From positions 1-35,359 of the forward strand of contig QPGO01000383.1 of assembly GCA_008632985.1 (NCBI GenBank): a DNA stretch of 35,359 bases, written 5' to 3'. The notes under the pieces were generated by a model. It saw nothing but the letters and a program-made list of their open reading frames with translations, searched no databases and was not told the origin of the DNA. The stretch is from Psammoneis japonica (Eukaryota). Below are positions 751-27,759 of this stretch, piece after piece. Each line of letters begins with the position of its first letter. Within the stretch, counting starts at the first letter, position 1. Position numbers and translations under genes: made by a program.

Positions 751-1089
751 CACTTAAGAGTAATATAGAGGTTATACCATATATTCGTGCATTTACACAA
801 ATGGTATGTTTTTGAAATTTTGGCTGGTCACTCCTATTGCCAGAAATTTTTAGTATTGAAATTTCTTCATGACATCATGCCAATCATCGTATGAATACCC
901 TCAGGTATGGAGTATTACAAATCAATTGATTACGTTCTCAACGGACCTCAACCTCCACCGCACCTGGTGGCGTCGCTGATGATGGTCTGAACTCACGATC
1001 ATGCACACAAATGGCGTGTGGGTGTTCTCGTTTGTAGAGGAAGCGGCCATTGTCGTTGGTTACTGGTAACCGCATAGAGGAGGGATATA

Positions 1090-3128
1090 ATGAAGAGGCA
1101 AAGCAGTGGTGGTAACAGAGAGGCGAGAGGATCCGATCCTATTCCTACTTCTGTTTCTGTTAGGACCTTTGTTTTGAGTGCAGCTGTATGCGCATTGTTC
1201 AGTTTTGCGGTTGGGTATTCGTTGGATCCGCTCTTGACATGCTACGAACAATTCTTGCAGCAGAGACGAGAGGCTTCAGAAGAGATTCAGTACATTCGAG
1301 AGCAGGACGAAACGTTTGGTGAACAATGCGGATCAGCCTATCATCCCATTTCCTTTTTTCGGAAAAAGTCTCAAGCTCCACCCACAAAGTACTCGTCCAA
1401 GACATTTTATGGCAATGACAACGATCAGTGCTCGACTACGTTTGATATGAGTCCCAACACAAGCAAGGGATTTTCGAAAAAGATGCTTTCCTCAGGAGGT
1501 CACTTGTTGGTGGATATGAGAGGCGTCGACGGAGACTTTTTAGATTCGTCCTCGAGGTTGGGCCATGCAATCGTGACGACTGCTAGGGAATCTTCGCTTA
1601 ACATGCTGTCCTTTCACTGTCACCAAATGGTTCCGTGTGGAGTGAGCTGTATTGGATTAATGTCTGAGGGGTACATGTCCTTCCATACTTGGCCTGAAGA
1701 ACAAGTGATTACCTTTGATATGTTTGCGAGCGGGACGTTTGAGATTACTGACTTTATGCCCAGCATCGAACGGAACTTTGGGGTTTCCAGAAACGGACCA
1801 CCCACTGTCATTTGGGGACACAAGCTGAGGGGTCGCAAGGATGGTGTGAAAACGACCGACTTGACGAGGCGTATCCTAGGTTTTACTGGTGTGGATGTAA
1901 AGAAAGAGGTACACAATAATGTATTGCTGATTGTCTTTGCGAATTCTTGGTCTTTCCCGCGTTCTCTCATTCTCATCAACCGTCTGTACTTGTTCAGATT
2001 GCATCCTTTGAAACAGAACACCAAAAGATTCAAGTTCATGACGTGGTTAAGAAGGACCTTGCCAACATTATGGCGGACTCGCACGAAACCAATCGTATTT
2101 TGCACTTGAACGGAGCCATCCAGTCGTCCCTGCCGTCGTTTTACGAGGCATTGGTACACCCCGCCATGTTTTCTCACGCGAATCCCCAACGCGTTGTGAT
2201 TGCCGGTGGTGGGTATGGTTCGGCCCTTCGTGAGGTACTCAAGCACAGTTCTGTCAAGAGTGCAACCATGATTGAATTGGACGAGCATGTGGTGGACGTT
2301 ACGAAGGAATTCCTCCCGGAATTGCATGATTGCACAGATCTTGTCGGAGTTGCAGATGTTTGTCTTGACGATCCAAAGGCTACAGTACAATACGAAGATG
2401 CAGAGGCTTGGTTTGTGAACCGATACGCCAACAAAAACAACATCCTGGGGGATCTTTTGGATGTCGTCATTATTAACTCAATGTATGTCGAATTTCACAG
2501 CTTGCAATTGATAAGTCGATTCAACGAACCTTGAGACTCAACCCAGCGCTACCCGTTCTCTCTTACTCTTCTAAACTACAGCGATCCCCATGTTGATTTG
2601 CCCTCAAGCGATCAACTTCACGTCCACGCAAAGTTTGTTCAGTCCCTGTACAATTCGCTTTCGGACGATGGAATTGTCGTTATGCTCATGGGGAAAGCCC
2701 CCGAGGTTACCGATGCTCCAAACACTCCACCCATCAAACACCGTGGCATCATGACACGTATGCTTCAACAGGCAGGCTTTGGCGGAACAGTCGCATATGA
2801 AGAGACACACGGCGGTTTTAACGGACCGCGTAGTTTTCTCGTGGCATTCAAGAGCGAAACGTCCCGCAACCACTGGCTTGCCAGTGAGGCAGTCAAGGAA
2901 CACGACATGATTTCACGGGCGGTACCGACGGCATCTGGAGAATCGCCGTTTCGATACTATGATGGGGCAATCATGACGTCGTACCAACGACAAGAACAAG
3001 ATGATGATGAGGCTACAAACTGTATTGGGAAAGACGAGCTCGTCAGCTATCTGGAAAAGGCCAAGAGTCCAGAGGACTGGTCACGGCAATTGTCGCAGCT
3101 TCCTGCAATATGTAAGGAAACCAAATGA
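1090..3128 (+). CDS. S-adenosylmethionine decarboxylase-like / spermidine synthase-like fusion (diatom long-chain polyamine synthase type). Exons 1090-1908, 1998-2482, 2582-3128; ~616 aa
   Basis: N-terminal hydrophobic anchor FVLSAAVCALFSFAVGYSL. Class-1b AdoMetDC motifs GHLLVD...SFHTWPE..ITFDMF. Aminopropyltransferase motifs EALVHPAM.SH.NP.RV.I.GGG.G..LREVLKH, IELDE.VV and DVVIINSIDP (across intron 2). GT-AG introns 1909-1997 and 2483-2581 join the three ORFs in frame. Confidence 0.88.
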
Positions 3129-8820: not shown

Positions 8821-9257
8821 GTGTTACAGTGCTATCCGATGCAATGTACAATCTCACCAACTATCAAGACACCAAGAAAAACGCCGTTGCTTGCATCCAG
8901 ACATTGGCAGACTCGTTCTAATCAAGATTGTGGGATCGAAAGAAAGTTGACATTCGCATTTGCTCATTCAGCCACCTTATCAAAGTTCATCTTTTCTACT
9001 TTTCTATCGTAACATTCTTCATTCATGCAGTCGAAGTTGATGGCTATGTAGGGCCTGCTGTGCGCATCATAGCTTACATCAGTGCAGTCGCATTTTCATC
9101 CCTCCGGATCCACTGCTTTTAGCGATCTATGTTTTTTATTTTGAAATTTTGAACGTGTCACCCCTCAGAAATTCCCTCCGACAAATTCCGTGCTTGCGCC
9201 AGATCTTTTCATTTCGCTCTGCGGTCGCTGATCTTGCGAACATGAAGAGCGGTTATC

Positions 9258-11913
9258 ATGATATTTGCTGCTATTGCTTTCACAATCCTTTTCTTATTCG
9301 TTCCTGTGTCTTGCTTGTTGTCCGATAATGATGAATCTTTCATTTCATGGTGCCACTGCATGGGACGGTTCGGCAATCAAGTCGACCAATTTCTAGGCGG
9401 CTTGCGCATCGCCAAACAATTGAATCGCACGCTCGTGGTTCCACCCTTTGTGGAATACATCGGGCGCAGTCGACGTTATGTGCCTTTTGAGGAGTATTTC
9501 AATATGTCTAGCTTGCAGCGTACCATCGAGTGTTATCCATGGAGAACTTTTTTCGACGGTATGGACATGACGATTCCTGGAACAGAACAGCCTTTTGCAT
9601 CAAAACGTCGACATTTAACAAAGAGGAGTGCGACATGAGACGAGGACAGCCGTCAACGGATTTCTGGGATTTGTACGATGTTCAATTTGATGAGTCGGTT
9701 CATTACGAGCATTTCCAACTGACTCAGCCTCAAGTCTTTTCCGAATTGTATCCAGCGTCGCAATACCCGGTCGTTCTACTTCAGGGATGTCCTGGGGCCT
9801 ATCCCGTGTTGGCAAAGGACCGTAAATTGCAACGTCACGTTGTTTTTCGTGATGATATGCTACAGGAGAGTCTTGAACAGATTCAGGATCTCCCCAGACC
9901 AATCTTGTCAGTTCACATCCGCAATGGTTTGGATTGGCAACGGGCGTGTCAACATGGAGTTGGAGAGATCTCCTTCATGGAGTCGCCGCAATGTCTAGAT
10001 CCCGTTGGGAATGATACCATTCATGAAAATATGTGTTATCCAAGTCAGAACTTCACAGTGATTAGCGTTCGTCGCGTCGCTGTGGCAAAGGGTGCACAGT
10101 CAGTCTACATTGCAACCGACAAGGATTCGTGGACAATCGAGGTACGGAAAGAATTACGTCGTCATGGTCATGGACACGTTTTAGTACAGACAAGCCCATT
10201 TACGGGTGACAATGCTTATATACAAGACTTGGTTGTATTGAGCACCACAGACTTTTTTCTAGGGAATTGTATTTCGTCCTTTACGGGCTTCGCCGCTCGA
10301 TATCGACGTCATGTGAACATGCTGGACACGTTCTTTGTCGGGCTCAACTACACGGAAGATGATGTGGATGACATAAGCAACAGAGAAAGTTATCCATCAC
10401 GTAGGGAGGAGGTATCGATACCCGTCGACGAGTTCGGATACCATTGGCATGACTACTATGAGCAAGAAAACAGGCGTGCCAAGGCTTGTTACATTTTGCC
10501 CAATGCGGGTTCTGCCGTATCCGAAACGAGCTTGGATTCAACCGAGAAGGACTTTTTCGACGAGTGTGACTATGGCGCTGTGAACAAGCTACGTCGTGAG
10601 ATGAAATACGAATTTCATCGCAAGAATGGAGCGGAATCGTCACACTGGTTTGCACGGGTGAAAATTCTGTGCTTTGTCATGGCAAAAACGTCATGCTTCA
10701 CTTCCCAGACAAGATCGAATCTGGCACAAGAGACTGGCGAGAAGAGAAGAAGATGATTGAGCTAGTGGATGACAATGATGAAGAGTCTACTTATGACCTG
10801 AGAATTTCTCGTCCAACAATAGTGCTGAAGCCTGACTCGCACGCGAATTTCTATCATGCCATGTGTGATTTCTCTAATCTCTATCTGTCTTCACACGTGG
10901 TGGATAGCATCGAGTTTTCAGATTCTCGACATACGAAACAAGAGCTCAAGAAAACTTTTGATTTGCTCGTTTGGACGGATAGAACACAATTTCGTTCAAA
11001 GTTCGACGTGCTATATCGAGCATGGATTGGTTTAGACGGAGAGATTATAACCGCATCATCCTATGCCGGAAAGAAGGTATACTTTGATGAGCTGTTGCTC
11101 AGCTTGAATCCACGGGAACGACAAACAACTTCTTTTACAATATGTACGTCCCCGGCATGATGCGTCCGCTCGATGACAAGTGGGCACGGGGATCTTTCGA
11201 CGTGTCTTGCAGTGGCAGTGACTTCTTTGTAGACTTTTTGGATTTTATAAATCGCAACAACGCCGCCCTGGTCAACACTGCTGATGACTACATGAAGCGA
11301 TCTGATCGCCCCTTGGTCGTTCGAATGCTGTCACGGAGTAGCGGGACAGGGGCCACATCCGGACTCGCAAACTACTGAACGAACAAGAGGTGTTGATGGC
11401 GGTTCGCGAGAAATACAGTGACCAGCAGGTGGATATTTCCATTGTTGACTTTGATTGGTCGCAGCAGCACACAATCGAGAAGCAGATGGAGACTTTTCAA
11501 GCCTGTGACGTGCTCTTTGGTATGCATGGAGCTGGTCTAGCCAACATGTTATTCATGCCCCGATGGTCAAGCGTAGTGGAAGCCTACAACTGTGACGATG
11601 ACTGGTGCTATTCGGACCTGAGCCGCCTTTCAGGTTTTTCGTACTTCCGAGCTACGGAGGCCGACGTGGAACGTTTCAAGCCTGCGGTGGAGGTAAAAGA
11701 GTCTCATCAGGATCACAAGAAATACTTTGACTACAAAATCGACGTGGCCGTAGCCCTAAGGCTCATGAGAATGCTATGGGCGCGGTGATCAGACACAAAG
11801 ACTCTCCTTTTGATGCAAACAGCAAGTCTGTGCAAGATATATTGCGCTTGGATACGGAAAATCCTCACGATCCCAATGTGGTGAAGCCTTATCATATTCT
11901 TGACGAGTTGTAG
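9258..11913 (+). CDS. POFUT1-EOGT: Fusion of protein O-fucosyltransferase 1-like (GT65) and EGF-domain-specific O-GlcNAc transferase-like (GT61) domains. Signal peptide, C-terminal LDEL, ~886 aa after correcting five -1 frameshifts (~9520, ~10640, ~11125, ~11362, ~11767)
   Basis: POFUT1 motifs: WCHCMGRFGNQVDQFLG..IAKQLNRTLVVPP, YHRV.S, VHIRNGLDW..AC, SPQC, SVYIATD, DFFLGNCISSFTGF. EOGT motifs: FFDECDYG, ANFYHAMCDFSNLY, GKKVYF..L.PR, FFYN, RKLLNE, FGMHGAGLANMLFMPRW..VVEAYNCDDDWCYSDLSRLSG. The last frame ends ...ILDEL, TAG at 11911-11913. Confidence 0.82.
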
Positions 11914-12298
11914 GTGAATACCACCTGCAGGTTCTCCGAAGGTGTCTGATCTTTCAAAAGTAGCGCGAAACGAAGAACACTATAGAGACTATTTTATGTC
12001 GTGCGTATCAGTCTCCTTCTTTGTTCAACGCGAGCACAGCTGATTAGATTTTCTTTGTCACGCGAGAAGATTTTGAATGAAGACTAACTTTTCGTGACTT
12101 TGTAATTGTGGAGTAGGATACATTCGGTTCGGCAAGGTTGAACGGCTTTTCCAAAATCATCCTTACTATTCTTATTGTCTTTTTCTCGACCTACTTATGG
12201 ATTGACGATCTGGCTATTACAATGACAACGAGCGACGAAGCATGCGTCCGAGCGCTCACTCTGAAGGGCGAACCTTGCACTCCGCGGTCCATTGAAAC

Positions 12299-13624
12299 CT
12301 AAGGGTCCTCATCAGGCGCCTTGCAGATCAGGTAAGAATCAGCCGGGCGGACCTTGCACTCGAGACCAGGGCAGCACGCCAGATTGGAACATCCATTCCA
12401 ACGGCCCGTACAGCTGCCGGTCGGCGCACCAAAGGAGTTCCAATAGTAGTGCTGACAACCGTTGGCAATGCCACAGCGATCAACGGCGGCACACGTGTCC
12501 GCCGAATTTAAGCAACTAGTGAAATCCATGGTGCAACAACCGCTGCCACTGTTTGTTCCGGTCGGGTTCGCCGTCACAGGAGGACTTCCAGTAGGAGGTG
12601 AAGGAGGTGGAGGATTGGGGTTGATAGTAGGACTGGGAGTTGCGGGAGGTTCAACGGTTGGAGGAGGAGACGGGCTGGGGGTTGGCGATACGGTGGGTCC
12701 GGCAGCTCGAATGACAATCTCAGAACACTGCCAGTATTGCTGGGGATTATCTCCGCTGTCCGGGAGGGGCGGGTAACAGATCTTGCTCATTGATCCGTAA
12801 GGCGTCCATCCTTCAGGCCAACTGTAGTTGTTGTATCCAACGTTACGACAACCCAAATTCGTCAGCCAGTGCCATTGAAGTAAGACACGATCACCCGTAA
12901 CTCCATCGGGTAGCTTGAAGCGATGCCTAAAAAATCTCCAGAAACGTCAGCCTTGCTGTCTGTAATCATCTCACTAAATCCTGGAATGGTTGCATCAGCT
13001 GCGATTTTGGTGCGACACAGGGAGAGACGTGGATCGGAATCAGATCAGGAAAAGAAACGAAGACAAAAGAGATGCAGTACAATTTGTAATAAACTTACAG
13101 CCTCCCGGCCTAAGATAGGCACGATCTGGATAGCTTGGATCCTTTGGAGCTCCATAGAGTTGATCATCGATAAATTCGAGGCGGTTTGCGTCAAAGCAAG
13201 CTTGAGTGGGTGCGTCAACGTCGAGGCAAATTCCCATCTCGATGTGTCCAAGGTGGTTCGCTGATAGGATGGACTCGACTTCGATGATCTGCCCCTCTAT
13301 GTATGTCGCCTGAGGCGTAAACGGCATGGGATTGCCAGACCCTGTCACCCAATTGGTTGTGTAGTCCTTAGCATTGGCACCGACGTCACGTTTTCCACAG
13401 ACCCCGTAGGTATCGCCGCCCACCAAGTGGCAATGGGGACAGTACTCAACGAGGGGGAAAAGGTCAGCGTTGGCGTTGCCGGACTGAACACCATCTTCAG
13501 CCGAGAAAATCTGACGGCTACGGGGGCTGCTCATGTACCCATGCCCATTCACAGTCGTCGCGACGTTGAAGGCGAGGGTAAGGATGAGACTTGAAATCAA
13601 CATGATGTGGGAACAAGTTTCCAA
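12299..13624 (-). CDS. Secreted lytic polysaccharide monooxygenase-like (AA15/AA10, chitin-binding-3 type) protein with Pro-rich linker and Cys-rich C-terminal module. Intron 12999-13098; one -1 frameshift at A-run 12929-12934
   Basis: Signal peptide ending VNG then HGYMSSPRSR (N-terminal His). Second His motif SANHLGHIEMGIC. HRFKLP..LLQWHW and QQYWQCSEI. PTPSPSPPPT linker. C-terminal C..RW..C...CCPGLEC module. Start may be at 13603. Confidence 0.8.
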
Positions 13625-14286
13625 TCTTTATCTGAAACTCTGCAGTTTCTTACAATCTCCAGATTTTATGAGACTGGCAAAATGTGCGAAAAGGGAAGGG
13701 GTTGCAAGTTGCATACATGGGTGACGTCGAAAAGAACAACATTCTAGAATCGAACCGGATTCTCTAGAGGGCCCTAGAATCTTGTGAGCTGTCGTTCATG
13801 TCACGTGCACTCAACCGCTTCCGCCAGAAAAAGTCATCACGCCTTCTTATGCTTTGGGCATGGCGTCGCAACAGAGATGCGATACTCAGTGATAAATGAG
13901 ATGAAAATCACTAAGTGGACGTCCGCGCTTTCAGTCATTTAGCCAAGGGTCCCAAGGCCCGTCCATTTAAATAGGGCATGACCACAGTCTTGAAGGCATC
14001 GTCTGAATCATAATTGGTTGAAAGCAACTCATGACCAGCATCTTGTCATGTCTTGTCCAACCCCGATAGAGGGTGTGGGTGCGTGGGCAAAAGGTGAACC
14101 TCCGGCCCTCCGGCACATCGTCGCTGACGTTCGAACCGTTTCAAAAAAATTCGTCGGGCATCGGGCAGTGTCGCAAGCAAAGGAGGAAGCAGGTCAGACC
14201 GTCTCAAGACCGTTGAGATAACGCTTCTATAACGGATTAATTGGCTCACATTGCTGCATGCATGACGCGAGCGCTTCATAGCTTGA

Positions 14287-15490
14287 AATGAAGTCTCCCG
14301 CGATGCTTGCCGCAACCTCCTATCTCGCCTCCACCAAGGCCCTCCATCTGCTTTTTCCTTTCTTTGATCTTGTGTGTCAAAGTTCCAACAACTCTGCTGG
14401 TGTCATCACCTCGACTCATCCACCTGGGACTCTTTCGTCCAAGAAGAAGAAGGCCTCGCCAAATGTTGCCCTCTCGGTCCCGTCTTTGCCAGCCCAGCCC
14501 TCTCTCTCTCTCTCTTTCTCTCTTGTTCTTTTGTCTGCTTAGCCAAGAACTCCTTCAGCATCTCCCTGGCTGCTCTTGCATTGACGATGCACACGTCTTT
14601 TTTCCTCGCCACTCCACTCTCTCCCATGGTTCCTGGAACGCTTTTCTGCCCTTGTTGGTGCTCCCTGCAGCATCACCCTCAAGCTCCACAAAACCAAGAT
14701 TCTCACCTCCATCACTGGCACCAGTCCCATCCCCTCTCTCTCTCACTCTCAAGCTGGCCCTCTCTGTGCTGCTCTTTTGCATCTCAACCCTTTGAACACC
14801 AACCCTCCCTGCAGTCCTGAGCTCACCTCTGGTGTCCTCTTCCTTGGTCAGCCCCTTGGCTCCCATGAGTTTGCCAACTCCTTCCTCTTCACTGCCTCAT
14901 CCACTCTCTCTGACAAAGTTGGCAAGCTCCTCACCTGCCTTCACAACACAAACAAACCCAAGCCCAACTTTTCAAACACTGTTTCACGCCCTCCTCCGCT
15001 CACCTTCTTGGTGCTGATTTCTGCCATGACTTCAAACCTGACAACCCCCCCTGATCCCTTCCTTTGGACATCTTCCTTCCAAGATTCTCTTTTGACTGCC
15101 ACCCATTGGTTCCTTTGCTGTGTCACCTCCCATGCTGACACTCTCCCAGATCATTCCCTTGCCATCGCCTTTCTTCCAGCTTCTCTCAGCGGCTCTGGTG
15201 TTTGGGACCCAACAGCTGCTGCCATTTCTTCCTTTCTTGTTGCTCTCCTCCATTCCTTCCAATTTGCCTTCCATGGAGTTCAGCTGCTGTTCAGAGATGC
15301 CATTGCTCTCCCTTGCTGCTTCAGGCTGTCCATGTCCTCTTGGAACAACCCCAGCTTGACCCTTTGCCTCTCCACACATGATCTTCTGCCACTGTGCCCC
15401 TGCTCTTGCCTCTGCATCCACCCTTTCATTTTGCAGCACACTGAGCATCACAGCCATGGTGCTTTTCACAGCTTCTTTGGGTCTGCTTAA
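14287..15490 (+). mobile_element. 5'-truncated, degenerate non-LTR retrotransposon (RT domain; CRE-like by motif)
   Basis: RT motifs in order across frames: NEVSR, FPFFDL, EEG..CPLGP (QGxPL-like), CIDD at 14577-14588 (=YIDD), KTKILTS, FLGQPLGS, LP...SGSGVWDP (LPxxxGGLG-like). Confidence 0.75.
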
Positions 15491-18400
15491 AATGATGAAA
15501 AGTCACAGGCAGGGAGCAACAACTGCAAATTGTCAGTGAACCTAGTGGCGCGTGCAATTTGGTCACACCATGTGCAGATGGCAGGTCAGACCTCCTTTTT
15601 TTTGACAGCCAAGTGGATCTCTCTGAAGTCTGCTTCTCTTGCACTTTCTCATTGGCGCACATGTCATCCATTGTTGCCAGTTTCCAGGGAGGTTCATGTC
15701 AATTGCTGACTTGACTGTCCCTGCTTTGACAGGTTTTGGCCCCCTTGTGTTGCACCATGCTTTCTGCACTGTAAACCCCATTTTGTTTTGTTTGGTTTGT
15801 GATCTGATCAAGTGCACCTCTGACCTGCTCTGACCCTGCAAGGTTTTGTTGCCAGAGGAACTTCTGCTTGTGCAAGAACATCTTTTTTGTGCACCTCTCC
15901 CATGGTGACTCCTCCAAGAGGAAAGTCCATCATTGACACCCTTGCTTTCATCAAGGCTGCACTCCAGAAACTTTTCCAAGTCCCTCAAGCCATTCAGCTC
16001 CTTGAAGGCATTTGCAGCAATGCACCAGTTTTTGATCTGGATCTGTTTCTTGATGACAACAAACACACACACAATTGAAAGATCACACTTCAGAGATTGT
16101 CTCAGGTTGCACCCACAGAAAACCCCACTTTTGCCAAGTGCAAGGGGTCCTTCTGATGTCACATCTGTCAAATCCTCACTTCAAGTGAAAGCTCCACTTG
16201 CAGTGGGATCTAAGTGACACACCAAACAACTGCATCACATCAAAAGTGCCTCCAACAAGTGGATCTTTGCTCCCCCCCATGATTCACACTGCACATCTCT
16301 GGCATCCAAGAATCTGTTCAGCCCAGGTGCAGCACCATTGGATGTGCGCAAGCAGTTTGATCAGAATGCTGCAGGTGAAATGAAGGTCCAAAGTTCACTT
16401 GCTCCATTTCATGTGGCCCCATGTCATGGCCAGACCATGTCATTCTGGCTTCTGGCTGGTGGGTTGTTGTTTGTGATGAATCTGACCCCAGGCCACAAGG
16501 CATTGCTTCATGAGCCAAAAGTGCATGTCACAACAACTCTCTGCACACCAGCATTTTTCAATGATGCCTCAACACTCCATGCACACAGCTGATTGTGAGC
16601 ACTGTGTGAGCCCCACAGTGTTTCCTTGCAGCCATGGTGGTCATTGGGGCTTTGCGGTTGCGGATGACAAGGCTGATGACCAGCCACAATGAGCGCACAA
16701 TTTGCTGTCTCTTGAACCACCCCACACAATTCACAAGCTGCTGTCATGGTCTGACACATGCTTCCAAAGATCAGCAAGCTTCATCAGATTGTTGCATCAT
16801 GCTGTGGCACCAATGGCCACAGTGCATTGGAGCAGATGCCATTTCAAGTTCATCCATCTTTTTGCAAAGAGGTGCCAGGGCCACTCAATGGTCACCCGCA
16901 GTCTGTCAACTGCTGGCTGCTTTGTGGTGTTCCAACAAGACTCTTCTTCCTTGCACTGTGAGCATGAAAAATGACTGTGTCCATCAAGAGTGCAATGTGC
17001 ACCAAGAAGTGCCCAACAAGAGCAATGCACAGTGAACATGCCTCCTCAGCAGCACATGCCTCTGCAAGTGCACCAAGAAACAGAAGATTGTTGTTGAGAC
17101 TCCTGACTCTTTCCACTTTTTTTAGCCTGGTCAGACAGTCTTGTGACCAGTGAACACACCAGCAATCATGCTCCAAGTCAGATTTGTGGACAGGAATGAA
17201 GGAACAATGAATTGTCAACACAGAGTGTGGTGGGTGACAATGCCTCAGCTGGCTGCTCCCAAAGCCCCCGGCCAAGGAGACAGCTGTCCAAAAGCCAGCT
17301 GATGCTGTTGTTCCAGCTGGGGGCACTTTTGCAGCTGGTCTTAATGCACCAAGCACTGACAATGATCATCTTTCACATCATGCACCCTTGGTGTGCAACA
17401 TCAAAATGATGCCCAACAAGGCCTCAAAGAGATCATGCCTGGTGTGCACAGGAGATTTCCTTTTTCATGGTTGACCAGCCTTCACACTGGCAACCCTTGT
17501 GTCAAAGGATTTCACATTTTTTTGTCAGTTCTTGAAACGTGAAGTGGCCATGGGAGGGGGGGGTGTCACAGCTTCAAGGTGCACAAGGATGGCTGCCAAT
17601 GGATCAAGCTGCAACAGGAATCATTCGAAAATGTCGCGTGGGTCATGACTGACATTTTGCACAAGGAAAAACACAAAATCGTGTGGAAATGCACACAATG
17701 TCATACGAGAGAGTGATTGGAGCTAATGACTTTTCGGGAACTCAATTGAAATGCCATCTGATCGACGGCATTGCGATGGCCTTCACAAAATGCCGTGGAT
17801 CAGATGGCATTTCAATTGATTTCCCGAGAAGTTGACACTCGCACACGGATGGATGGACAGACTGACAACAATTGTTTTTGGTGCTCTCCCACACAATTTC
17901 CACGTGATGACTCTCAGGACCCGAATGATTCCCATTGTGCTGCCCCACCCACCACAACCCTGCCTCTGGATTTTTGCACATCACAGTCAACTTCAGATCT
18001 CCTGCAGAGCAGTCCATTGCTTTGTTGCCAACAGACAACAGCCTGATGATCACCTTCTGCGGCAGATCTTCTTTCTCCTGAGAGTGAGTTTGCTCATGTT
18101 CTGCTGTTGCCAACATCAACACCAAGGATGTTGCTGCAACTCTGTGTGTGGGCAATGACCCTTGCACTCCCATTGACAATCAGAGAAGGGCACAGGAGCC
18201 AACAAATGTGCCCAACGACTTTTTTGAATTGGTTTGTGCAGCATTGGATCATGGCACTGGGGCTTTGCAGTGACCAGCTCAACACACATCTCTCTGAACT
18301 CACGTTTGGATGCACATGGTGGTGGCACTGCTCCCACGGCACAAAATGAGAATCTTTTCAGGACAGCACCATCAGCTTTTTGAAGGATGGACATGATGGT

Positions 18401-20660
18401 GCTCAACTGGATGCTGGTGCTGACATGGCTGCTGACCCACTGTGCAGAACCAGTGTCTGAGCACCCAGGTGTGACAAGCCATTGACTGTGGAGATTGGAG
18501 GCAAGCTGCCCAGCAAAAGAACTCCAGAAGGACAAATTCACATGGAAGCAGCGCCAGGGCCCCAGCAAAAATGTCAAGACAAAAGTCCAGAGTGTTGAGA
18601 AACTGCACAAAATCCAGCATGGAATCAGCACCGGGGATGTCACAAAAATGACACAAAATTCTGGACTTTCTTGGCATTTCTGCTGTGGACCTCACACTTC
18701 TTTTGCACAAATTTGTCATTCCAGAGTTTTCTTTTGTGGGACAGCAAGGCCACTCTGCGTGCAAGTTGCGCACATGCAACACAGCAAGACATGCAGAGCT
18801 TGAGTCAGTCCCTCTGCATTCCCTTGGCACGAGAATGGGGTTGAGCTCTCAGCACTGCATGGATCTCATGCAGCCCCCTCATGCAAGATGTGCCAATTGT
18901 GTGAGAGCCAGTCAGCTCATGACTTGTCTGCACAGAACTCTTGCAGCTTGCCATGTTGGCGGGCTCACAAGGAATCACACTTTCAGAACAGCATGCTTCC
19001 AAACAATCAGCTGCCCCAATGGGCCAGTGGACAGATGCAGGACATTGCTCACACAACAAGGTCAGTCAAATGGTGGAAGCAACCCAGTGCGCTGCTGCCA
19101 AAAAATGTTGCTGACACCAAATGCTGTGGCCAGTGGCACATCTGGAATTTGTCCTGGCTGATCCACATTGTCTTTTCACTCAGGTTCTGACAAGCACTGT
19201 TATCATGTCTGTTTTTGTCTTGAACATGCAAGCCAGAGTTTGTTCTCTGAGAGACATGTTGTTCAAGCAACTCTCTTTCTGCTGTCTGTTGTGTCAGCCT
19301 GGCACTTGGTGCTGCAGGCAACAGACAAAATTTTAAAAAAATGCTGCTCTCACATTGTGTCATTTCTTCTTCACAGAAAGCATGCATCAAATGTTCATTG
19401 GAAATGCAGCAAAATTGACAGGAACATGTGTCACTTGGTCAATGTCAGCAGCCCTGGTGAGTGCCTCTGTCAAAAGGCACATTTCCATGGGGTGTCCAGC
19501 ACAACAAACAATGTGCCATGCATGTTCAAATTCCAAGCCAGGGTGATGTGTCTTTTGTGTTTTTAGCATGGTCTGCAGTGTTCATTTTGTCCATTTGTTC
19601 CAACTCTGCAAAGTTGACTAATCTCAAACTGAGTGGTCCACAGCCCATGGGCGGTTGAGTTGTCCAATCTTGTGGAGCACATCAATTTCCTTGCATTTTG
19701 ATTTTTTGTGCTGCTGAGCTTTGTGTTGCACCCATCAAGCATTTCATCATCAAAAGTGACATCTCATGCTCAAATGAAGGTGCACACAGATGCTCTTGCT
19801 GTGCATCATGCAGGCTTTTCATCTGATGCACCATCTTGTTCAACTCAATTGGCGTGGACCAGGCTTTTTGTGATCTGCTTCCTTCTGTGCCACTTTGCAG
19901 TGCTGAGGTGGAAGCAGTCTGTGTGTGCTGGTCAAGCCACAGCAAGCTCATTGGTTTCCTTTTCATCCACACAGCACTGCACATTGACAAGATGAGAGAG
20001 TGAGTGTTGTTTCCGGCCTGCACCACCCACTCTTTGCAACTCTCTGGCCAGAGCCCCAAATCTGGGTTCCCAGGTCTGGAGCCCCAGCTTGAGGTCTGGT
20101 GCTCATGGCCTGTGCTGCAACCAATCAGAGAGCTCATCCAAGAGTGTGTCAAACACCAGAAATGGCAGAGTCTGAGAGCAACAGAGGGCAGCCAACCCAT
20201 CAATGATCAGCCTTTTTTGCACCTGGCTGGTGGCTGGAGCAACAGTTGCTGTGCACTCACTCTCATGTTGAAGTTCCAGCAAGCAAGAAAACTTCTGTGT
20301 GAAATGACATGTGCACTGCAGAATCAACACTTTGCATCGGCATGTCAGTGCTGGCTCTGGGCCATTCAAGGGCCTTTCAAGGAATGTCATGCATCTGCAC
20401 CCCAGCGTCACTTTGAGAAGCACACTGGAAAATGACCCTCCTTGGGCTGTCGAATGGAAACAAAGTGTCTTTTGTCCCAGCTCCAGGCTTGTTGAAGACC
20501 TCTTTAGAGGGTTTTTGAATCAGGGTGGGATGCTGGCAAGTGGTTTTTAACAGATGCAGATTTGAAGATCTTTCACAAATTGCACTGGGCTCCACGCACA
20601 CTGGTCTGCATGGAGAATGGGGGGATGGCTGAAACATGCCCTTGAATGAAGTCTCGGTCA
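15490..20660. mobile_element. Array of further TpA/CpG-depleted repeat relics, unclassified
   Basis: Near absence of TA and CG with TG/CA excess. Many Cys/His-rich spurious ORFs on both strands. No family motif recognised. Abrupt return to normal composition at ~20665. Confidence 0.5.
17729..17832. repeat. Inverted repeat/hairpin, 44-bp arms (41/44 match) with 16-nt spacer
   Basis: acttttcgggaactcaattgaaatgccatctgatcgacggcatt (17729-17772) versus the reverse complement of 17789-17832. Confidence 0.85.
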
Positions 20661-21037
20661 TTGGGCGATTATTTTATTGCTGTGCGTAGTGTATGTGCAT
20701 CGTAGCTAAAACAGACTCTGATAGAATTATGCTTGCTAGAGTGTCCTTTTCTACTCAAAGTATTCACCTTAATTTTTCCCAGGGGAAGACTCAGAGAAAG
20801 CAACACCACACTGTCTAATTGAGACCCCATGCGCAAAGGAGGAAACATTTGCTGTTACTCGTTTGAATGTGAACGCAATCAGAAGCAGGCTTGCCACCTT
20901 AGCATCGGAAAGACATATATGGTATGTAGCTTTGCACGATAGTAGTTTTCTTCGTTTGGAGTGGATTAATTTCAGACGAGGAATGGGTCGAATCCTGAAA
21001 CGAAGGATACGGTTATCTTCTTTGAAATGTCGTGAAA

Positions 21038-22600
21038 TCATATTTCAGTAGCGTTGTGGAAGATTCTAGCATTCACGCCCACCAACTTTAAAGCATCCCG
21101 CACTATTCGCAGAGCATCTTCTGGAAACAGAATAATGTCACCTCCTGGATACGTGGTATTCGGTCGTTCATTGTGCCAAACCATATAAGGTCCTCTCATT
21201 GCCAAGAGCGAGCCAAACCGAATCCAATTGAGATCCGGCGGTGGCGGTGGAACAAGCTGCACCGAAACCGCTCCCTTTGGCAAGTAGATGCCATTCATCA
21301 ACCCTGCCCCGTTCATACCAACCAAGACTGCGTAGTTCTGTACTGATTGAATCTGCTGCGCAACGGTGCCACGAAAGCTTACCAAGTCCACCTCTGCCGA
21401 GGGTTTGAGTTTGGAGTTTAGGTACCGGACCACTTCTCCCTCATTGATGATGCACCGTCGACGGCGCTGGTCAGCTCGGGAAATGAAAGCTATTCGTGGC
21501 TTGGTTATTAGAGGAGGCGGTTGCTCACCCAGAGCCTGGTACTTCATGTAATCAATAAACGAGTTGACATTGCGAGACACAGCTTCTGGATCCTGCGACT
21601 CGGGAAACGAGTCATGAAATGGCGGAAGATCAATGTACAGATCACGAAAGCAAATATTTTTCCTTCCGGCTGAACCATTCATTGGGAAATTCCGAATATC
21701 CAATGGTACAAGAGAATGGCGCGACAAAAGTTGTAGGCCTGAATTATGAAAGTCGCTTGCACGTAAAAACGGTTCCCGAAAGAGGCTTGTGTTCCAAACC
21801 ACGTACTTGCCCCTGTCACGCACCACCGGCATGATCAATACATTCGGTCTAATCATCCTCCTGCCTCCTCCAAAGCTTCCATATTCCAAGAGCTCACTCG
21901 TCAAGAGCTGTTTGTAGAGAGGCAAGAGCGTATCATAGTGCACATGGAAGTAATTGGACTTGTACCACCAAAACACATCGACAAGAAATGTGGGCGTGTC
22001 AATGGTGGCGTCGCATGTTGGTGCCTCGTTATCCGAGCGACGCACGGCACTTTTGTAGCCAAGAAATTGAGTTAAGATCGTTTCCGCTTGCTGTGCTTGA
22101 TCATTGCGTACGACAAACTGTATCGGCGCAATGAGATCTTGTGTGGCGTTCGCCAAGCTGGAGGGAATCGTGGCAAAGTCTCCATAGATCTGTAGCCGAT
22201 GAAGCATGACATTATTCACGTGACAGTACCCCAGAAACGTGCTGCAGGGGTCCAGTATTTTCACATCTTGTAGTTGCACTGCTTTCGTCCCCAACAAGAC
22301 TTCTGGAGGAAATCCCCGTCCCAGATACGAATCGTACTCGAGGTCCAGCTTGGATGGAATGTTCAACACCAAGCTTGTAGCAAGAAGGAAGCAACACACA
22401 AAAACTGATTTTGGCCAATAATAAACAACAGCTCGTGACATATCGACGCGAGTCGCACCATGATGAAAAGCTCGTGCCGTTTCAGCCACTGGCCTCAGGT
22501 CAGATGATGCAGTAACATTATCCGTGATACTTTCCCCACATGCTTCCTTCTCTGCATCGGAAGTTTGTTTCCGTATCCTCCCTCTTCGTTGAGAAATCAT
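21038..22600 (-). CDS. Glycosyltransferase family 61 (DUF563), POMGNT2-like, type II membrane protein
   Basis: TM SVFVCCFLLATSLVL. NYFHVHYDTLLPLY (compare POMGNT2 NLMHVFHDDLLPLF), ICF, ISR...RCIINEGE, LVGMNGAGLMNGIYLPKGAVSVQLVP. Intronless 520-aa ORF. Confidence 0.8.
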   Translation of the reverse strand: MISQRRGRIRKQTSDAEKEACGESITDNVTASSDLRPVAETARAFHHGATRVDMSRAVVYYWPKSVFVCCFLLATSLVLNIPSKLDLEYDSYLGRGFPPEVLLGTKAVQLQDVKILDPCSTFLGYCHVNNVMLHRLQIYGDFATIPSSLANATQDLIAPIQFVVRNDQAQQAETILTQFLGYKSAVRRSDNEAPTCDATIDTPTFLVDVFWWYKSNYFHVHYDTLLPLYKQLLTSELLEYGSFGGGRRMIRPNVLIMPVVRDRGKYVVWNTSLFREPFLRASDFHNSGLQLLSRHSLVPLDIRNFPMNGSAGRKNICFRDLYIDLPPFHDSFPESQDPEAVSRNVNSFIDYMKYQALGEQPPPLITKPRIAFISRADQRRRRCIINEGEVVRYLNSKLKPSAEVDLVSFRGTVAQQIQSVQNYAVLVGMNGAGLMNGIYLPKGAVSVQLVPPPPPDLNWIRFGSLLAMRGPYMVWHNERPNTTYPGGDIILFPEDALRIVRDALKLVGVNARIFHNATEI

Positions 22601-23382
22601 TTCGGTGTTTTCATCACGTCTACTCTAGCTGCAAAAACCTGTTACATATTTACAGGAGAATATACAGTATGCCTTGCTATCGGTTATCTTCGTCTTGTCG
22701 GTGTGATCGATGATGGTGAAATGAAAAGCGCCTCTCTAGTAGGAACCTACGGACGGACGTCACACGTACGGTACGGTAGTCCTTGATGGATGCTTTCAGC
22801 TTCATAATCATTCAAACTCTCTCTATCAAAGTAGCGAGTCTAACGTAGAGAGATGAAGGAGATCAATCGATGAGAGGGCATTGGGCTGAGAGGTAGTCTA
22901 GCTAATAATCATGTACTGTCTATATAAAGTCCCGCCACTCTCAGTCCACATTCTTTTTTCGGCTGCAGGCGCAGCTCATCTTTTGATTTTTGGTTGGTTT
23001 TTTTGCTTTCAGCTCATCTTATGATTTTTCTTAGCTTTTTCCTTTGATACACTCTAGGCCCTAGATGTCCGCCTCCTAAATAGTAGACCGTGATTATGGT
23101 AGAGAAAGTAAGACCACGCATGGACCCGTCTTGAGGACTTGTCCTGAATTCTGGTTGGCTTCTTTGCCTCGAAAGAAAACAGGTCAGTTCTTGGAAGGAT
23201 TCTTGTTCAATGTATACTTTAACATGTATCTTCTAACTTGATAAATACGACTTGTATGGTTCAACATGTACTCATGCAGCAATAATGTTGGATGTATCTT
23301 CTAACTTGACTCATCATGCAAGATGTATATAGATATGTATGCAAACAGCAGGGGCCTTAGCGCTAAGGGCCTTAGCAAACTT

Positions 23383-23924
23383 CTAAGGCGGGGGGATTAC
23401 ACTCTCGCAATGTCGCCCAGTGAACCCTTCCTCACACACACATTTATATCTTTGACCCTCTGAAACGCAGTGCCCTCCGTTTTTGCAAGGGTTGGGATGG
23501 CAAGGGTTTGGCGGTGGGATTTCACTCTCGCAATGTGGCCCAGTGTACCCTTCGGCACACTGGCATCTATATTGGTCACACCTTGTCTGGCATGTCCCTC
23601 CGTTATCGCAAGGATTGGGAAGGCACGGGTTACTCGGTGGGGCACCAGAGCTTTCTGAACCCGAGCACTCCGCACTCGAGCTTAGTGCACGAGCCCTGAG
23701 TTGAGGTGCCCCTTTGACGGTGCCCTAGTGGAGAAGCAAGACACAAACACCATGGTGAGCGATACAATTCTCCTCCAGATTGCAAAGTATACAAATGACA
23801 TTGACTCTGCAATGGACCAAACAAATTGCTCTCAACACAGAAAAAGACTACATACCGGTGCGCCTTCCACGACGATGGAAGCGGCCGCGACCAAGGCGAG
23901 GACAGCTAGCAGACAAAGTTTCAT
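23383..23924 (-). CDS. Small secreted protein with two EGF-like repeats (136 aa). Exons 23924-23856 and 23724-23383; not in the ORF track
   Basis: ATG at 23924, signal peptide MKLCLLAVLALVAAASIVVEG. gtatgt...ctag intron 23855-23725, phase 0. NPCLPNPCDNGGTCQTRCDQYRCQCAEGYTGPHCE and NPCHPNPCKNGGHCVSEGQRYKCVCEEGFTGRHCE. TAG at 23385-23383. Confidence 0.85.
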
Positions 23925-24034
23925 AGCTCCAATGATTCGGAAAGCCCGTTGCGTTCTTCGCTTGTTTTAGCTTAAGCTATCTGCAATATCAGAGGAAGGA
24001 TAGGAAAAGATTAGCAACATATATTCCTTGAAAA

Positions 24035-24620
24035 TCGAACGCGAGCGTTCGGTCAACGATGAGAACTCATGCACAGTTGTTGAATAACGCTTCCAGAACA
24101 TTTCATACAACGCCACATTTGCAAGAACGAAACGCGCAAGTCAGTCGCAGCCACAACGAGACGGACTCGTGGTCATTTCGAAGACATGGTGTTCAATCGC
24201 ATCGAATCCGAGCACGCGGTCAACGATGAGGACTCATGCAATCCTGTCGAATAGCGCTTCCAGAACAGTTCATCTACTAGCAACCTAAGTTTGTATGGAG
24301 AGGTCAAAAAGCCAACCGCGCAAGCACAGCGTGACGGACACAAGTCATCTCGACGCGACTACATCCCGGAGAAGCCAACCGCGCAAGCACAGCGTGACGG
24401 ACACAAGTCATCTCGACGCGACTACATCCCGGAGATAAAGCTAGTGTTCAATCGTATTGAACCCGAGCTTGTGGTTAGCAACGAGAATCCATGCAATCGT
24501 GACCAAAAAGCGCTTTCAGGAACACTTCATATCGATGTATTTTGCAAGAACAAGTCGACAAGCCAGCCGAAAGCGCAAAGCGACTGGTCTCCAGTCGACA
24601 GTAGGTGCAATCGACCGAAA
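24035..24620. repeat. Degenerate ~170-bp tandem repeat (3 units) upstream of the EGF gene, containing a perfect 63-bp tandem duplication (24309-24434)
   Basis: Core ggtcaacgatgag.actcatgca at ~24051 and ~24218, diverged at ~24473. Exact 63-mer at 24309-24371 and 24372-24434. Related units at ~27470-27740. Confidence 0.8.
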
Positions 24621-26327
24621 TGCTTGCTACAAAACGGACGCAACGCGTACACTTGCAGAGTTCCTGCTCTTTACTTTCGTACGATTCCACGGAATTCTCG
24701 AAACTGGACTCCGCAAACGACAATCACATGACCGTAGATTGCGCATGATGTTAAGAGGGCGAGTATACGAGCAGCAGAGCATGCGCTGACGACGGAGAAC
24801 CCACCTTTGCTTTGATGTGTATGAACTCGTTGAATGTACCCTTTTCGATTTCCTGCTTCTTCTTTTTATGAGAGAATGGGGGATTGATTTGCGAAGCATG
24901 ACGGTGGTTCCATCAGGTCATTTGCGAAGGGTTACAATAAGTGGCATGCGCCGTCATGTCGTCACGATGAGAACATGGTGAAATCAATCGTGTTGCGAGA
25001 AAAAATTGGCGCACAAAAGAGAACACCGACGCCACAAGCACGATCAGTTCCAGAAACATTTTGTAGCATATCAAAGCACTTATAAGCGAACAAGAGATTC
25101 TTTAACACGGGCGACGGTTACCCTCTACTAGTCACAGCACGCTCGAATTCGCATTGTAAGATCGATGGAGACGCCATGACGCCATGGCGGCGCTCTTGGA
25201 CTGCGCGCACCGCGATGACGAATGACCGATGATGCGTCCAACTCCAACTCAATTTTGCGAGAGCGCGAACTCGCCAGACCGTATCTTTTCACTACGCGGT
25301 ACCTTACAAGCTACTGTACAAGACGTCAAAAGATCCAAAGTTGGTTCGTTTGACGTCGACAATGAGCCACCAGCCGCACTGCCGGTTGTTACATGGAGAG
25401 CATGAAGCTATTTGTAATGAGTATGATGCCAAAAAGAAACGGACGACAAGATGTCTCAGAGAGGCTGAAAGGCAACGGAACATCATCTTGCGTCAAAATT
25501 TCGATCTTTGACAAACCCACTGGATCTTTGCGGGGGGGAATGCAAAAAGGTGTTGGGTCACTGGGCCACCCTCTTGTTTTGCATCAATTGTCCCGTTATT
25601 TTGAATGCTGGATCGGTTTCATCATGCTTGTTGTTTGATGCACAGTGTCTTGCACATGCACTCTGCTGTCATTCGAAATGACAACAGGCCAGGCTTGAAA
25701 CGGTCGCGCCGTGAGACCCGTGTGGATGCCCACGCTACAAAGCAAACTTGAGAACTGCTTTTGAGACATCCAGGACATTTGGTGGCAGTGACACTTGCAC
25801 AGAGAGGCTAAAGTGGATCAATTGATGGGAGAGAGCATGTTGGGACGAGAGGCAAGCCAGCTGACAATCATGTGCTGTCATGTGCAAAGTTCCGCCACTC
25901 TCAGTCCACATGCTTTTTTCGGCTGCTGTTGCAGCTCATCTTTTGATTTTTGGTTGTTTTTGTTGGCCTTTGGCTCATCTTTCAATTTTTCTTGGTTTTC
26001 TTGTTTCAGTCTGCTTGAGACATGTCTCCCAAATGGCAGACCGAGATCACGACTTCATGTGGAGAAAGTGGGACCTCGCATGGACCCGCCTTGAGGACTG
26101 TTCCCGATTTCTGGTCGGCTTTGTTGCAGCAAAAGAAAATGGGTCAATTCTTGCAAGGATTCTTCTTTAACGTGCACTTTCCATGCATCTTCTAACTTGA
26201 TCCATGTGACTTGTGTGGTTCAACATGTGCCTCATGCAGCAACAATGTTGGATGCATCTTCTAACTTGACTCATCATGCAACATGCATGTCAACATGCAT
26301 GCATGCAGCAGGCGCCTCTGCAATCTT

Positions 26328-27290
26328 TTAAAACGGGGGGATTGCACTCTCGCAAAAATGCCCAGCACAACCTTTGGCACACACACATCTCCACCTGTGA
26401 CCCCTTGACTGGCGACGCGTTCCAGCTCTAGGTGGGACCTCGCACTGCTGCACTGTGACATCAACAGTTTTTTGGATCGCCTCGCATGTCGCGCACGTGC
26501 ATTTCTGCGTGTAAAATTCTACAAAATTGTCTCATGCTCCCTGTTTTGCGAAGCCAAAGGCTTTCTATTTTCAACATTTATGAGAATGAAAATACACTGG
26601 GCATGTTCTTTAATGTCTGAAGAACACACCCGGGCAAACCATCAATGATGTGCTCCAAGTGTGAAGGAGGAGATGCGTTCGTAAAATTGCCTCTTTTTCT
26701 GTTGGCGATCATTCACATTTTCATTGCAGGATAAATTTGCTACGGAGCTCGCACGTGGAATTCTATGGGCCCAATGTCACGCGGAGTCCCACCTGGGACT
26801 GGAACCCGTCTGGCATGTCCCTCCGTTCTTGCAAGGGTTGGGACGGCACAGGCCAGTTGCAGGGGACTTCACTCTCGCAATGTCATCCAGTGTGACCGTC
26901 GGCACACTGACATCTGCACCTGCCACCCCTTGATGCGCAACTCCCTCCATTCTGGCAAGGGTTGGGATTGCACGGGTTGGTCGCAGGGACTTCACTCTCG
27001 CAATGTCGTCCAGTGCAACCGTCGGCACACTGACATCTACACCTGTCACCCCTTGATGCGCAACTCCCTCCGTTCTGGCAAGGGTTGGGATCGCACGGGT
27101 TAGTCGCAGGGACTTCACTCTTGCAATGTCGTCCAGTGCAACTGTTGGCACACTGACATCTGTGCCTGTCACCCCTTGACACGCAACTCCCTCCATTCTG
27201 GCAAGGGTTGGGATCGCATGGGTTGGTGCCTTCCATGATGGTGGAAGCGCCCGCGACAAAGGCAAGGACATTTGGCAGACAAAGTTTCGT
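26328..27290 (-). pseudogene. Pseudogene paralog of the secreted EGF protein, four 40-aa EGF repeats
   Basis: ACG in place of ATG. Signal-peptide remnant KLCLPNVLAFVAGAS. Three 120-bp NPCxPNPCQNGGSC repeats plus a fourth split by an insertion. In-frame TGA at 26883-26885, 1-nt frameshift at ~26862, conserved Tyr replaced by Cys/His. Confidence 0.85.
26414..26810. mobile_element. 397-bp MITE-like non-autonomous DNA transposon, 25-bp TIRs, 4-bp TSD (TGGC)
   Basis: TIRs gacgcgttccagctctaggtgggac and revcomp gacgggttccagtcccaggtgggac (21/25). TGGC at 26410-26413 and 26811-26814. Removing the element plus one TSD restores NGGTCQSRGHRWRCVC in frame. Confidence 0.85.
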
Positions 27291-27759
27291 TGTTCGGAAA
27301 ACCGATTGTGCTCTCTTGCATTCTTTGCTTGCTTCAGTTCAAGTTCTCTGCAATGTCAAAGAAAGGACAGGCAAAGCGGTTGGCAACACACATTCTTTAA
27401 ACACGAGTCTAGAGAGGAGTCAATGAGGAAAGGCCCACAAGGAAGTGCCACGGCTCATGATCCACTCGGATGTTCAATTGCATCAAAGTCAAGCATGCGG
27501 TCAGCTGTGAGAACTCATGCAATCGTTTTGAACAGCGCTTCTAGCAGCAGCAGATCAGCTCACACAACGCCATGTGTGTTCAAGAACAGAACGGACAAGT
27601 CGCTTCACAAGCACAATGGGACAGACACGCTGTTATCTTGATGACCAAATGACAGTGTTCAATTGCACCGAACCTGATCAACGACAAGAACTCACACAAT
27701 GATTGTGATTTTGATGTTGCACTCATTGAAAGCGCTTCTTTCAATTTCTGGTTTCTTCC

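Follow-up and report, generated by a model that had tools for sequence, protein, structure and literature searches.

The window analysed here is a 35,359 nucleotide (nt) stretch of DNA from the eukaryote Psammoneis japonica (assembly GCA_008632985.1, contig QPGO01000383.1, positions 1 to 35,359 of the forward strand). It carries a gene in which a domain of the protein O-fucosyltransferase POFUT1 precedes a domain resembling EOGT, a member of glycosyltransferase family 61 (GT61), and in addition a second GT61 gene and two loci for proteins with epidermal growth factor (EGF) repeats. Each of these elements was found at the place where a first-pass annotation, made from the letters alone, had put it. 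In what follows we describe the genes and then weigh whether the fused gene encodes a bifunctional EGF O-glycosyltransferase for which the neighboring EGF protein is a candidate substrate. The elements in question are as follows.

9258..11788, + strand: two-domain frame, POFUT1 plus EOGT-like GT61, ~843 codons with a hydrophobic N-terminus (from Pfam and PDB matches)
21038..22600, - strand: second GT61 gene (GT61-2), an unbroken 528-codon frame (21038-22624) with a type-II-like N-terminal membrane span; Pfam GT61 E value 2e-14
23383..23924, - strand: EGF-A coding region, 136 residues, consisting of signal peptide, linker and two EGF repeats
26334..27290, - strand: EGF-B, a decayed tandem copy with four EGF repeats; Pfam EGF E value 3.5e-11 (26777-27338)

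Genes were placed using six-frame open reading frames (ORFs) in combination with Pfam, and structural relatives were sought with phmmer against the PDB. The window is eukaryotic as judged by its GT..AG introns of ~100-130 nt, its base composition is uniform throughout, and tRNA and Rfam scans of it returned no match. Read-derived contigs from three runs of one sample in one study (X1, X2 and X3), which may be the very source of the window, were compared with it. Run X1 provided DNA contigs and X3 yielded no contig on the window. We have taken X2 as cDNA-like on the strength of three joints with CT..AC ends, the kind of record being merely a guess ('DNA?'); its contigs are present on the fused gene, on GT61-2, on a gene for a lytic polysaccharide monooxygenase (LPMO) and on EGF-A, with none over 14443-20712 and almost none over 25729-27600, EGF-B included. 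The X1 and X2 differences cited below are taken from those listed, with 18 indel and 294 substitution rows lying beyond them, and contig depth was not taken for ranking genes. Papers are cited by PMC number from excerpts of their text.

The Fused POFUT1-GT61 Gene

The Pfam family O-FucT is recognized on two ORF pieces with E values of 1.6e-16 and 5.6e-23 (61.2 and 82.5 bits, as compared to a gathering cut-off of 31.5), and all four PDB matches of this part are POFUT1 structures, the best being mouse POFUT1 with an E value of 3.3e-40 over ~280 residues. An H-I-R in the window aligns with H-L-R at chain index 214 of the mouse structure, corresponding by offset to R245, so that the catalytic Arg is retained; in human numbering the R240A mutant of POFUT1 is enzymatically inactive (PMC11990869, in the excerpt used). 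The 23 columns that are invariant in the family, as defined by an 11-row alignment (A1), are kept without exception. Like animal POFUT1 (GT65; mouse 5KXH and 5KXQ, human 5UX6), the window has the MGRFGNQ stretch, the Arg of H-x-R, GNC-x-SSFT and an N-terminal signal, whereas it lacks a KDEL-type end, continues instead into a GT61 domain and is just 29-36% identical to the named animal sequences. These matches identify the first domain as POFUT1 proper.

For the second domain Pfam Glyco_transf_61 is found on the last ORF piece (E value of 1e-14, 55.4 bits with a cut-off of 27). Mouse EOGT (9WJK) is the sole significant PDB match of the middle piece (5.8e-9), and the last piece matches EOGT with an E value of 1.1e-18 as opposed to 8e-7 for POMGNT2. 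According to the excerpt of PMC13123520, EOGT contacts UDP through N245, H248, R372, R377, Q412 and H432. The equivalents of N245 and H248, found in N-F-Y-H, and the aligned R377 and Q412 are all kept in the window; that of R372 was placed via P0151, a relative discussed below (L-S-R / L-T-R), in a longer loop, and its assignment is less firm. A comparison with animal EOGT (9WJK, PMC13123520), the best PDB match, establishes that the stretch YNC-x-D-x-x-CY-x-DL-x-RL is conserved, while D-G-E replaces DYD295-297, more residues separate the equivalents of R372 and R377, H432 becomes Asn and the HDEL terminus is missing. POFUT1 stands in place of the first ~100 residues of EOGT, and the GT61 half has a predicted activity and donor sugar. 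On the basis of these matches it is EOGT-like rather than a generic GT61 enzyme, its sugar specificity following by prediction from that likeness.

It could be argued that the GT61 half carries out a different chemistry, with UDP-xylose or UDP-arabinose, for instance, as its donor, or extending the O-fucose in a Fringe-like fashion to give a disaccharide on one site. Fusion of enzymes for consecutive steps of a pathway is common, and both the replacement of H432 and the Arg-Arg loop, longer than in EOGT, would be in keeping with such an activity. Moreover, GT61 members are described with several donors and acceptors in the excerpts of PMC13123520 and PMC12507850. Set against this, EOGT is by far the best PDB match (1.1e-18 versus 8e-7 for POMGNT2), the Asn, His, Arg and Gln contacts are kept, and an EOGT-type Thr-Gly site occurs in both repeats of EGF-A, and we consider a different chemistry unlikely.

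The two domains are read in the same direction and no stop codon lies between them; indeed, the frame that bears the end of POFUT1 stays open for ~400 nt more, with neither a stop nor a new signal peptide. The linker (10350-10690) has shown homology to nothing, a PDB search with 10400-10756 was without a meaningful match, and the same holds for a PDB search with the fourth frame piece alone. The fusion proposed in the first-pass annotation is therefore borne out in the identities of its enzymes, their common direction and the lack of a stop between them. A single open frame is not, since the window has four frame breaks that the annotation had overlooked.

In total 302 POFUT1 relatives were found in a collection of 1.84 billion representatives. 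None of the best 150 aligns past query residue 295, and a GT61 domain is absent from all 12 of the long-tailed relatives listed. A search for close relatives of the POFUT1 part recovered P0001 alone, a metagenomic sequence of 51-54% identity in which POFUT1 stands alone and a membrane span follows at the C-terminus. When longer proteins were sought with the 414-residue piece none was obtained at E<=1e-5, and with the last, EOGT-like piece the only one was P0151 (381 residues, 39% identity). A metagenome scan using a single protein as query found nothing, close relatives being absent from the contig collections. Within the collections searched the POFUT1-GT61 fusion thus looks unique to this lineage, and one limited collection of papers held nothing on POFUT1 fused to EOGT, nor on a diatom POFUT1.

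Integrity of the Reading Frame

From the frame map and tblastn the fused gene divides into five pieces; the LPMO gene, which has a frame break of its own, is listed with them.

9258-~9518, + strand: first frame piece
~9521-~10640, + strand: second frame piece
~10640-~11121, + strand: third frame piece
~11124-11362, + strand: fourth frame piece
11363-11788, + strand: fifth frame piece, stop included
12299..13603, - strand: LPMO gene (AA10-like), whose product has a linker rich in Pro/Thr and ends in a Cys-rich module; Pfam LPMO_10 E value 1.1e-6, above the cut-off

One break falls within the POFUT1 part (~9519) and three come after it (~10640, ~11122 and ~11362). All four frame switches are in the same direction, the window being short by one base each time, and there are no nonsense codons within the five pieces. 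Three of the breaks are pinned by homology using tblastn, the first by P0001 at ~9515-9521 and the last two by P0151 at ~11122 and at 11362-11363, with P0151 running uninterrupted across both of these points; the three are hence not introns. For the second break 13 GT..AG candidates of fitting length were considered over 10600-10756, all of which lack both a good donor and a good pyrimidine tract; the joints listed include none at this place.

The read-derived contigs bear directly on the first break, where the sole X1 contig carries one more A than the window, behind 9511 and at 61.4 of 61.4 depth; with this A the frame is restored and Ser-Arg-Leu is read, which is also the sequence of P0001. 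At breaks 2-4 no X1 or X2 indel, either for or against, is present among those listed. In the LPMO gene an intron (12999-13098) is established by an X2 joint, 12998/13099, with CT..AC ends, and from this intron to an A6 run at 12929-12934 the window is out of frame (region 12925-12998). Run X2 has an A7 here, with the extra A behind 12928 at 81.9 of 81.9 depth, and the LPMO frame is thereby restored. The X1 DNA contig agrees with the window in having A6, the extra A being found at 0 of 42.8 depth; the A6 is either an allelic null or a homopolymer miscall shared between the two. In-frame versions of both break 1 and the LPMO A-run site therefore exist in the sample, and the window represents either a consensus with errors or a haplotype in decay.

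The latter possibility, taken to its limit, is that of a decaying relic in which this haplotype carries the fused gene, the LPMO gene and EGF-B as pseudogenes, with function residing on another allele or lost. In favor of such decay are the four breaks in the fused gene and the one in the LPMO gene, with X1 in agreement with the window at the latter (0 of 42.8), the several independent lesions of EGF-B, a transposon-like insert among them, and the many X1/X2 differences that indicate a second divergent haplotype or copy. Yet the four breaks are alike, each one base short, and with no nonsense codon they resemble errors of the consensus, or changes of very recent date, more than they do old decay; an X1 contig mends the first of them, the catalytic residues are intact, and the spliced run X2 has contigs on the fused gene. 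We rate the relic as unlikely, and believe instead that the fused gene is probably intact in the organism.

Many of the X1 differences occur at approximately half depth, as would be produced by a second, divergent haplotype or copy. They are dense over 9763-13945, where numerous substitutions and small indels account for ~half of the depth in X1 and for all of it in X2, and one X2 contig, 11899-12565, differs from the window in 60 of 668 letters. The sample therefore also contains the 9763-13945 block in a second, divergent version, be it a haplotype or a copy.

EGF Genes and Second GT61 Gene

EGF-A is a live, spliced and secreted two-EGF gene. Its first exon (23924-23856) encodes a 23-codon signal peptide and its second (23724-23383) extends to the stop. 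The 131-nt GT..AG intron between them (23855-23725) was predicted first and subsequently seen as an X2 joint, 23723/23855, and a further joint, 23980/24805, delimits a leader intron at 23981-24804. An in-frame stop is found 45 nt 5' of the ATG (23924). The linker is Ser-rich, the protein has no membrane span, and the Pfam E values are 3.8e-18 for EGF and 1.5e-8 for hEGF. Within the leader intron there is a perfect 63-nt tandem duplication (24309-24434, two copies that are 100% identical).

Excerpts of PMC11990869 and PMC13123520 supply the acceptor consensus forms of POFUT1 and EOGT, respectively C2-X4-S/T-C3 and C5-X4-T/S-G-X2-C6. The first is present in one of the two EGF-A repeats, as CDNGGTC in repeat 1, with His at that position in repeat 2, and the second in both (CAEGYTGPHC and CEEGFTGRHC). 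In EGF-B all four repeats have C[Q/K]NGG[S/T]C and three of the four the Thr-Gly site. The motifs read exactly as they had been quoted in the first-pass annotation, which was also right that the O-glucose motif C1-X-S-X-P-C2 is absent (all six repeats read C-x-P-N-P-C); its remark that there is no POGLUT here carries no information on other parts of the genome.

As had been proposed, EGF-B is a pseudogene in the window: its ATG has become ACG, repeat 3 contains a stop, the frame shifts between repeats 3 and 4, and repeat 4 is split by an insert. Its 123-nt repeat units are ~90% alike. Repeats 1 and 2 have an Arg-Gly-Asp in the C3-C4 loop (26883-27224, - strand), and among the three full repeats the aromatic residue of the C5-C6 loop is changed to Cys in two, leading to an odd number of cysteines there, and to His in one. 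The insert and the duplication from which the two loci derive are

26414..26810: insert of ~397 nt resembling a miniature inverted-repeat transposable element, with 30-nt terminal inverted repeats (80% complementary), inside EGF-B repeat 4
22847..24263: duplication unit A, EGF-A plus flanks, matching unit B (25801-27680) in pieces with 68-80% identity (repeat search, blastn)

The insert is very high-copy (X1 word depth of 86477 in its bin), contigs have loose ends at 26414, and an X1 joint, 26408/26810, resembles an insert-free ('empty') site. The two EGF loci are thus present as originally described; their independence is lost, since both derive from one tandem duplication and so count as a single event rather than two.

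EGF-like proteins of diatoms and other stramenopiles, such as Sig1-3 of Thalassiosira weissflogii and the EGF-like membrane protein of Seminavis, similarly have extracellular EGF-like repeats, and in the excerpt of PMC8027222 such proteins of stramenopiles are tied to sex and flagellar hairs. As compared to the Sig proteins, to which it is likened by description only, EGF-A is a secreted protein of 136 residues with two repeats and no membrane span.

GT61-2 is the immediate same-strand neighbor of EGF-A, ~0.8 kb downstream, and an X2 contig (22294-22694) sits on it. Its best PDB match is POMGNT2 (3.2e-7), with EOGT at 6.2e-3. In the Atlas its nearest clusters are all GT61, the first of them auto-named 'EOGT' with a score of 0.98. 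The N-x-x-H and Arg-rich motifs of POMGNT2 are kept and the type-II start is that of Golgi transferases, whereas the match itself is weak and limited to the C-terminal lobe. By its PDB matches GT61-2 would belong to another branch than the GT61 half of the fused gene, one that is not EOGT-like. GT61 enzymes are widespread in microalgae and include putative β-1,2-xylosyltransferases of the N-glycan core (PMC12507850, as excerpted). Given both this prevalence and the lack of EOGT-likeness, the gene provides weak support for an EGF module; of its claimed part in one, presence of the gene holds and the EOGT-like character does not (3.2e-7 for POMGNT2 against 6.2e-3 for EOGT).

Relatives of the POFUT1 Part

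Only one of the 78 POFUT1-bearing metagenome loci has an EGF gene near POFUT1. This locus, L001 (1-4265), is a prokaryote-like metagenome contig with a GC content of 0.68. It encodes a secreted one-EGF protein with a C2-X4-T-C3 motif and a Thr/Pro-rich tail, and divergent from this gene a long frame in which an MFS_1 part is followed by a POFUT1 domain (Pfam 2.7e-49); an epimerase that resembles GDP-fucose synthase adjoins the pair. P0010 is a shorter gene call of the collection, near-identical and starting inside the MFS-POFUT1 frame. Scans of 185,579 species genomes with the POFUT1 of L001 and with an alignment, A2, found no relative. L001 is thus like the window in having a POFUT1 gene beside that of a secreted EGF protein with the O-fucose motif, and unlike it in that there is no GT61, POFUT1 sits behind an MFS-like membrane part, and the sequence belongs to another branch of the tree.

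The tree comprises 33 rows, namely the window, L001 and 31 of P0001-P0045 with lengths of 300-520 residues, the other 14 and P0046-P0150 having been left out. An organism name is attached to 8 of the 17 POFUT1 relatives examined (7 animals and one choanoflagellate). In the tree the window pairs with P0001 (100/99), among environmental sequences, and a split with support of 94/92, which is below the star threshold, separates this pair from all named animals, the choanoflagellate and L001. Horizontal transfer, for which a phylogeny had been suggested as a check, receives no backing from this: the POFUT1 part is not nested among animals and there is no sign of a recent transfer from them. Nor is there support for the notion of an island acquired together with the LPMO, in view of this same placement and of the even composition.

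An Enzyme and a Candidate Substrate at One Locus

Taken together, the data point to one secretory-pathway polypeptide with two catalytic domains, POFUT1 at the N-terminus and an EOGT-like GT61 domain at the C-terminus. The POFUT1 half would transfer fucose from GDP-fucose to the Ser/Thr that precedes C3 of a folded EGF repeat. The GT61 half would correspond to animal EOGT, which places N-acetylglucosamine (GlcNAc) from UDP-GlcNAc on a Ser/Thr of the C5-C6 loop. The fused enzyme would then most likely act in the endoplasmic reticulum, O-glycosylating nascent EGF proteins, EGF-A among them, at both of these sites prior to their secretion. EGF repeats are the only known acceptors of POFUT1 and EOGT according to the excerpts of PMC11990869 and PMC13123520, and EGF-A carries both acceptor sites as well as a secretory signal peptide. 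That the fused gene lies ~12 kb from genes for small secreted EGF proteins with matching acceptor motifs suggests, short of proof, an enzyme-with-substrate neighborhood outside of animals. It is plausible that EGF-A is a substrate, that the sugar specificities are as predicted and that the neighborhood is selected rather than accidental. We put forward tentatively that a bifunctional EGF O-glycosyltransferase gene lies near a live, secreted EGF gene encoding a candidate substrate, the case for and the case against being nearly in balance with the scale tipping slightly toward the latter.

A number of observations weigh against this proposal. With respect to the enzyme, Asn occupies the position of EOGT H432, the loop between the UDP-binding arginines is ~6 residues longer than in EOGT (as it is in P0151), and the fused chain ends without an HDEL-like (K/HDEL) sequence. 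H432 has no proven need for activity in the excerpt of PMC13123520, where H432A is poorly expressed and was not assayed, and an HDEL end is likewise no proven requirement for EOGT activity. In the window the fused frame has four breaks (~9519, ~10640, ~11122, ~11362), and X2 contig 9231-10132 is without the extra A at break 1, yet longer than the window by one letter elsewhere. At none of the 78 metagenome loci is there a GT61 or EOGT-like match beside POFUT1, and EGF is beside POFUT1 at one of the 78, just 20 of these loci having at least 1.5 kb downstream. With respect to the substrate, hEGF-type repeats typically contain such acceptor motifs, which show compatibility rather than co-evolution and are weak evidence; the EGF loci represent one duplication event; and the ~12 kb that separates fused gene and EGF genes contains an unrelated LPMO gene and repeats.

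A rival reading is that of chance neighbors, with the fused enzyme acting on EGF proteins encoded elsewhere, for example large EGF-rich surface or flagellar proteins, and with EGF-A, EGF-B and GT61-2 merely nearby. In favor of chance are the ~9 kb of gene-poor, repeat-bearing spacer that, together with the unrelated LPMO gene, lies between the fused gene and the EGF genes, the single duplication behind the EGF loci, and the 77 of 78 metagenome POFUT1 loci without EGF nearby, most of which are short. Moreover, diatoms are among the stramenopiles that possess EGF-like proteins (PMC8027222) and GT61 is widespread in microalgae (PMC12507850), as far as the excerpts of these papers go. What speaks for more than coincidence is the great rarity of POFUT1 relatives in this lineage (one close cluster, metagenomic), so that two uncommon items are found close together, and the recurrence of POFUT1-EGF adjacency in L001. 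Chance alone strikes us as somewhat unlikely. For the enzyme-substrate cluster that had been proposed originally, the enzymes, the EGF-A gene and the motifs stand, and L001 provides a recurrence; its description as a self-contained module is not supported.

A stronger statement, that a eukaryote outside of the animals possesses a naturally occurring POFUT1-EOGT enzyme with both activities, and that its gene is linked to those of the secreted EGF proteins on which it acts, we regard as doubtful. Were it true, both of the 'Notch-type' EGF O-glycosylations would operate outside of animals, and enzyme and acceptor would travel and evolve as a cassette, echoed by the prokaryote-like L001 with its POFUT1, EGF and GDP-fucose synthesis genes. 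To our knowledge POFUT1 and EOGT have been studied almost only as regulators of animal Notch signaling and of matrix proteins. A single polypeptide with both activities would be a 'Rosetta stone' in the sense that the two modifications act jointly on one class of substrate, and would be evidence of a role for EGF O-glycosylation in a unicellular, non-animal lineage. EGF-A, next door, is a directly testable candidate substrate, and a compact enzyme with two activities could serve for glycosylating recombinant EGF domains. The POFUT1-EGF-fucose-synthase contig L001 poses the same question for bacteria.

Other Features of the Window

Between the LPMO gene and GT61-2 lies the spacer.

13700..20700: gene-poor spacer of ~7 kb, with no Pfam match for any of its seven longest frames

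Over 14000-16000 the spacer is C+T-rich, with GC skews of -0.31 and -0.24 and an AT skew down to -0.29, and has long, low-complexity Ser/Pro/Leu frames with no Pfam match. A 44-nt hairpin that is 93% complementary occurs at 17729-17832, and the sequence around it (~17578-18204) is high-copy, with an X1 word depth of 4439 in its bin. An X1 joint ties 17697 to 26420, which suggests that the repeat ends at these two positions are related.

In the LPMO gene the C-terminal Cys-rich module (12299-12560, - strand) is ~80 residues in length and could be a small module for binding; its only Pfam match, to a knottin-type family, falls short of the cut-off with an E value of 0.0067.

The remaining genes, which lie outside the finding described here, are those for a protein kinase, PEX5 and RbfA, and a fusion of S-adenosylmethionine decarboxylase (AdoMetDC) with spermine synthase. 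In the latter (1078-3128, + strand) an AdoMetDC domain (Pfam 1.5e-17) and a spermine/spermidine synthase domain (9.2e-24) are encoded by one gene with two apparent introns. AdoMetDC-spermine/spermidine synthase fusions are known from diatoms, where they function in the synthesis of long-chain polyamines.

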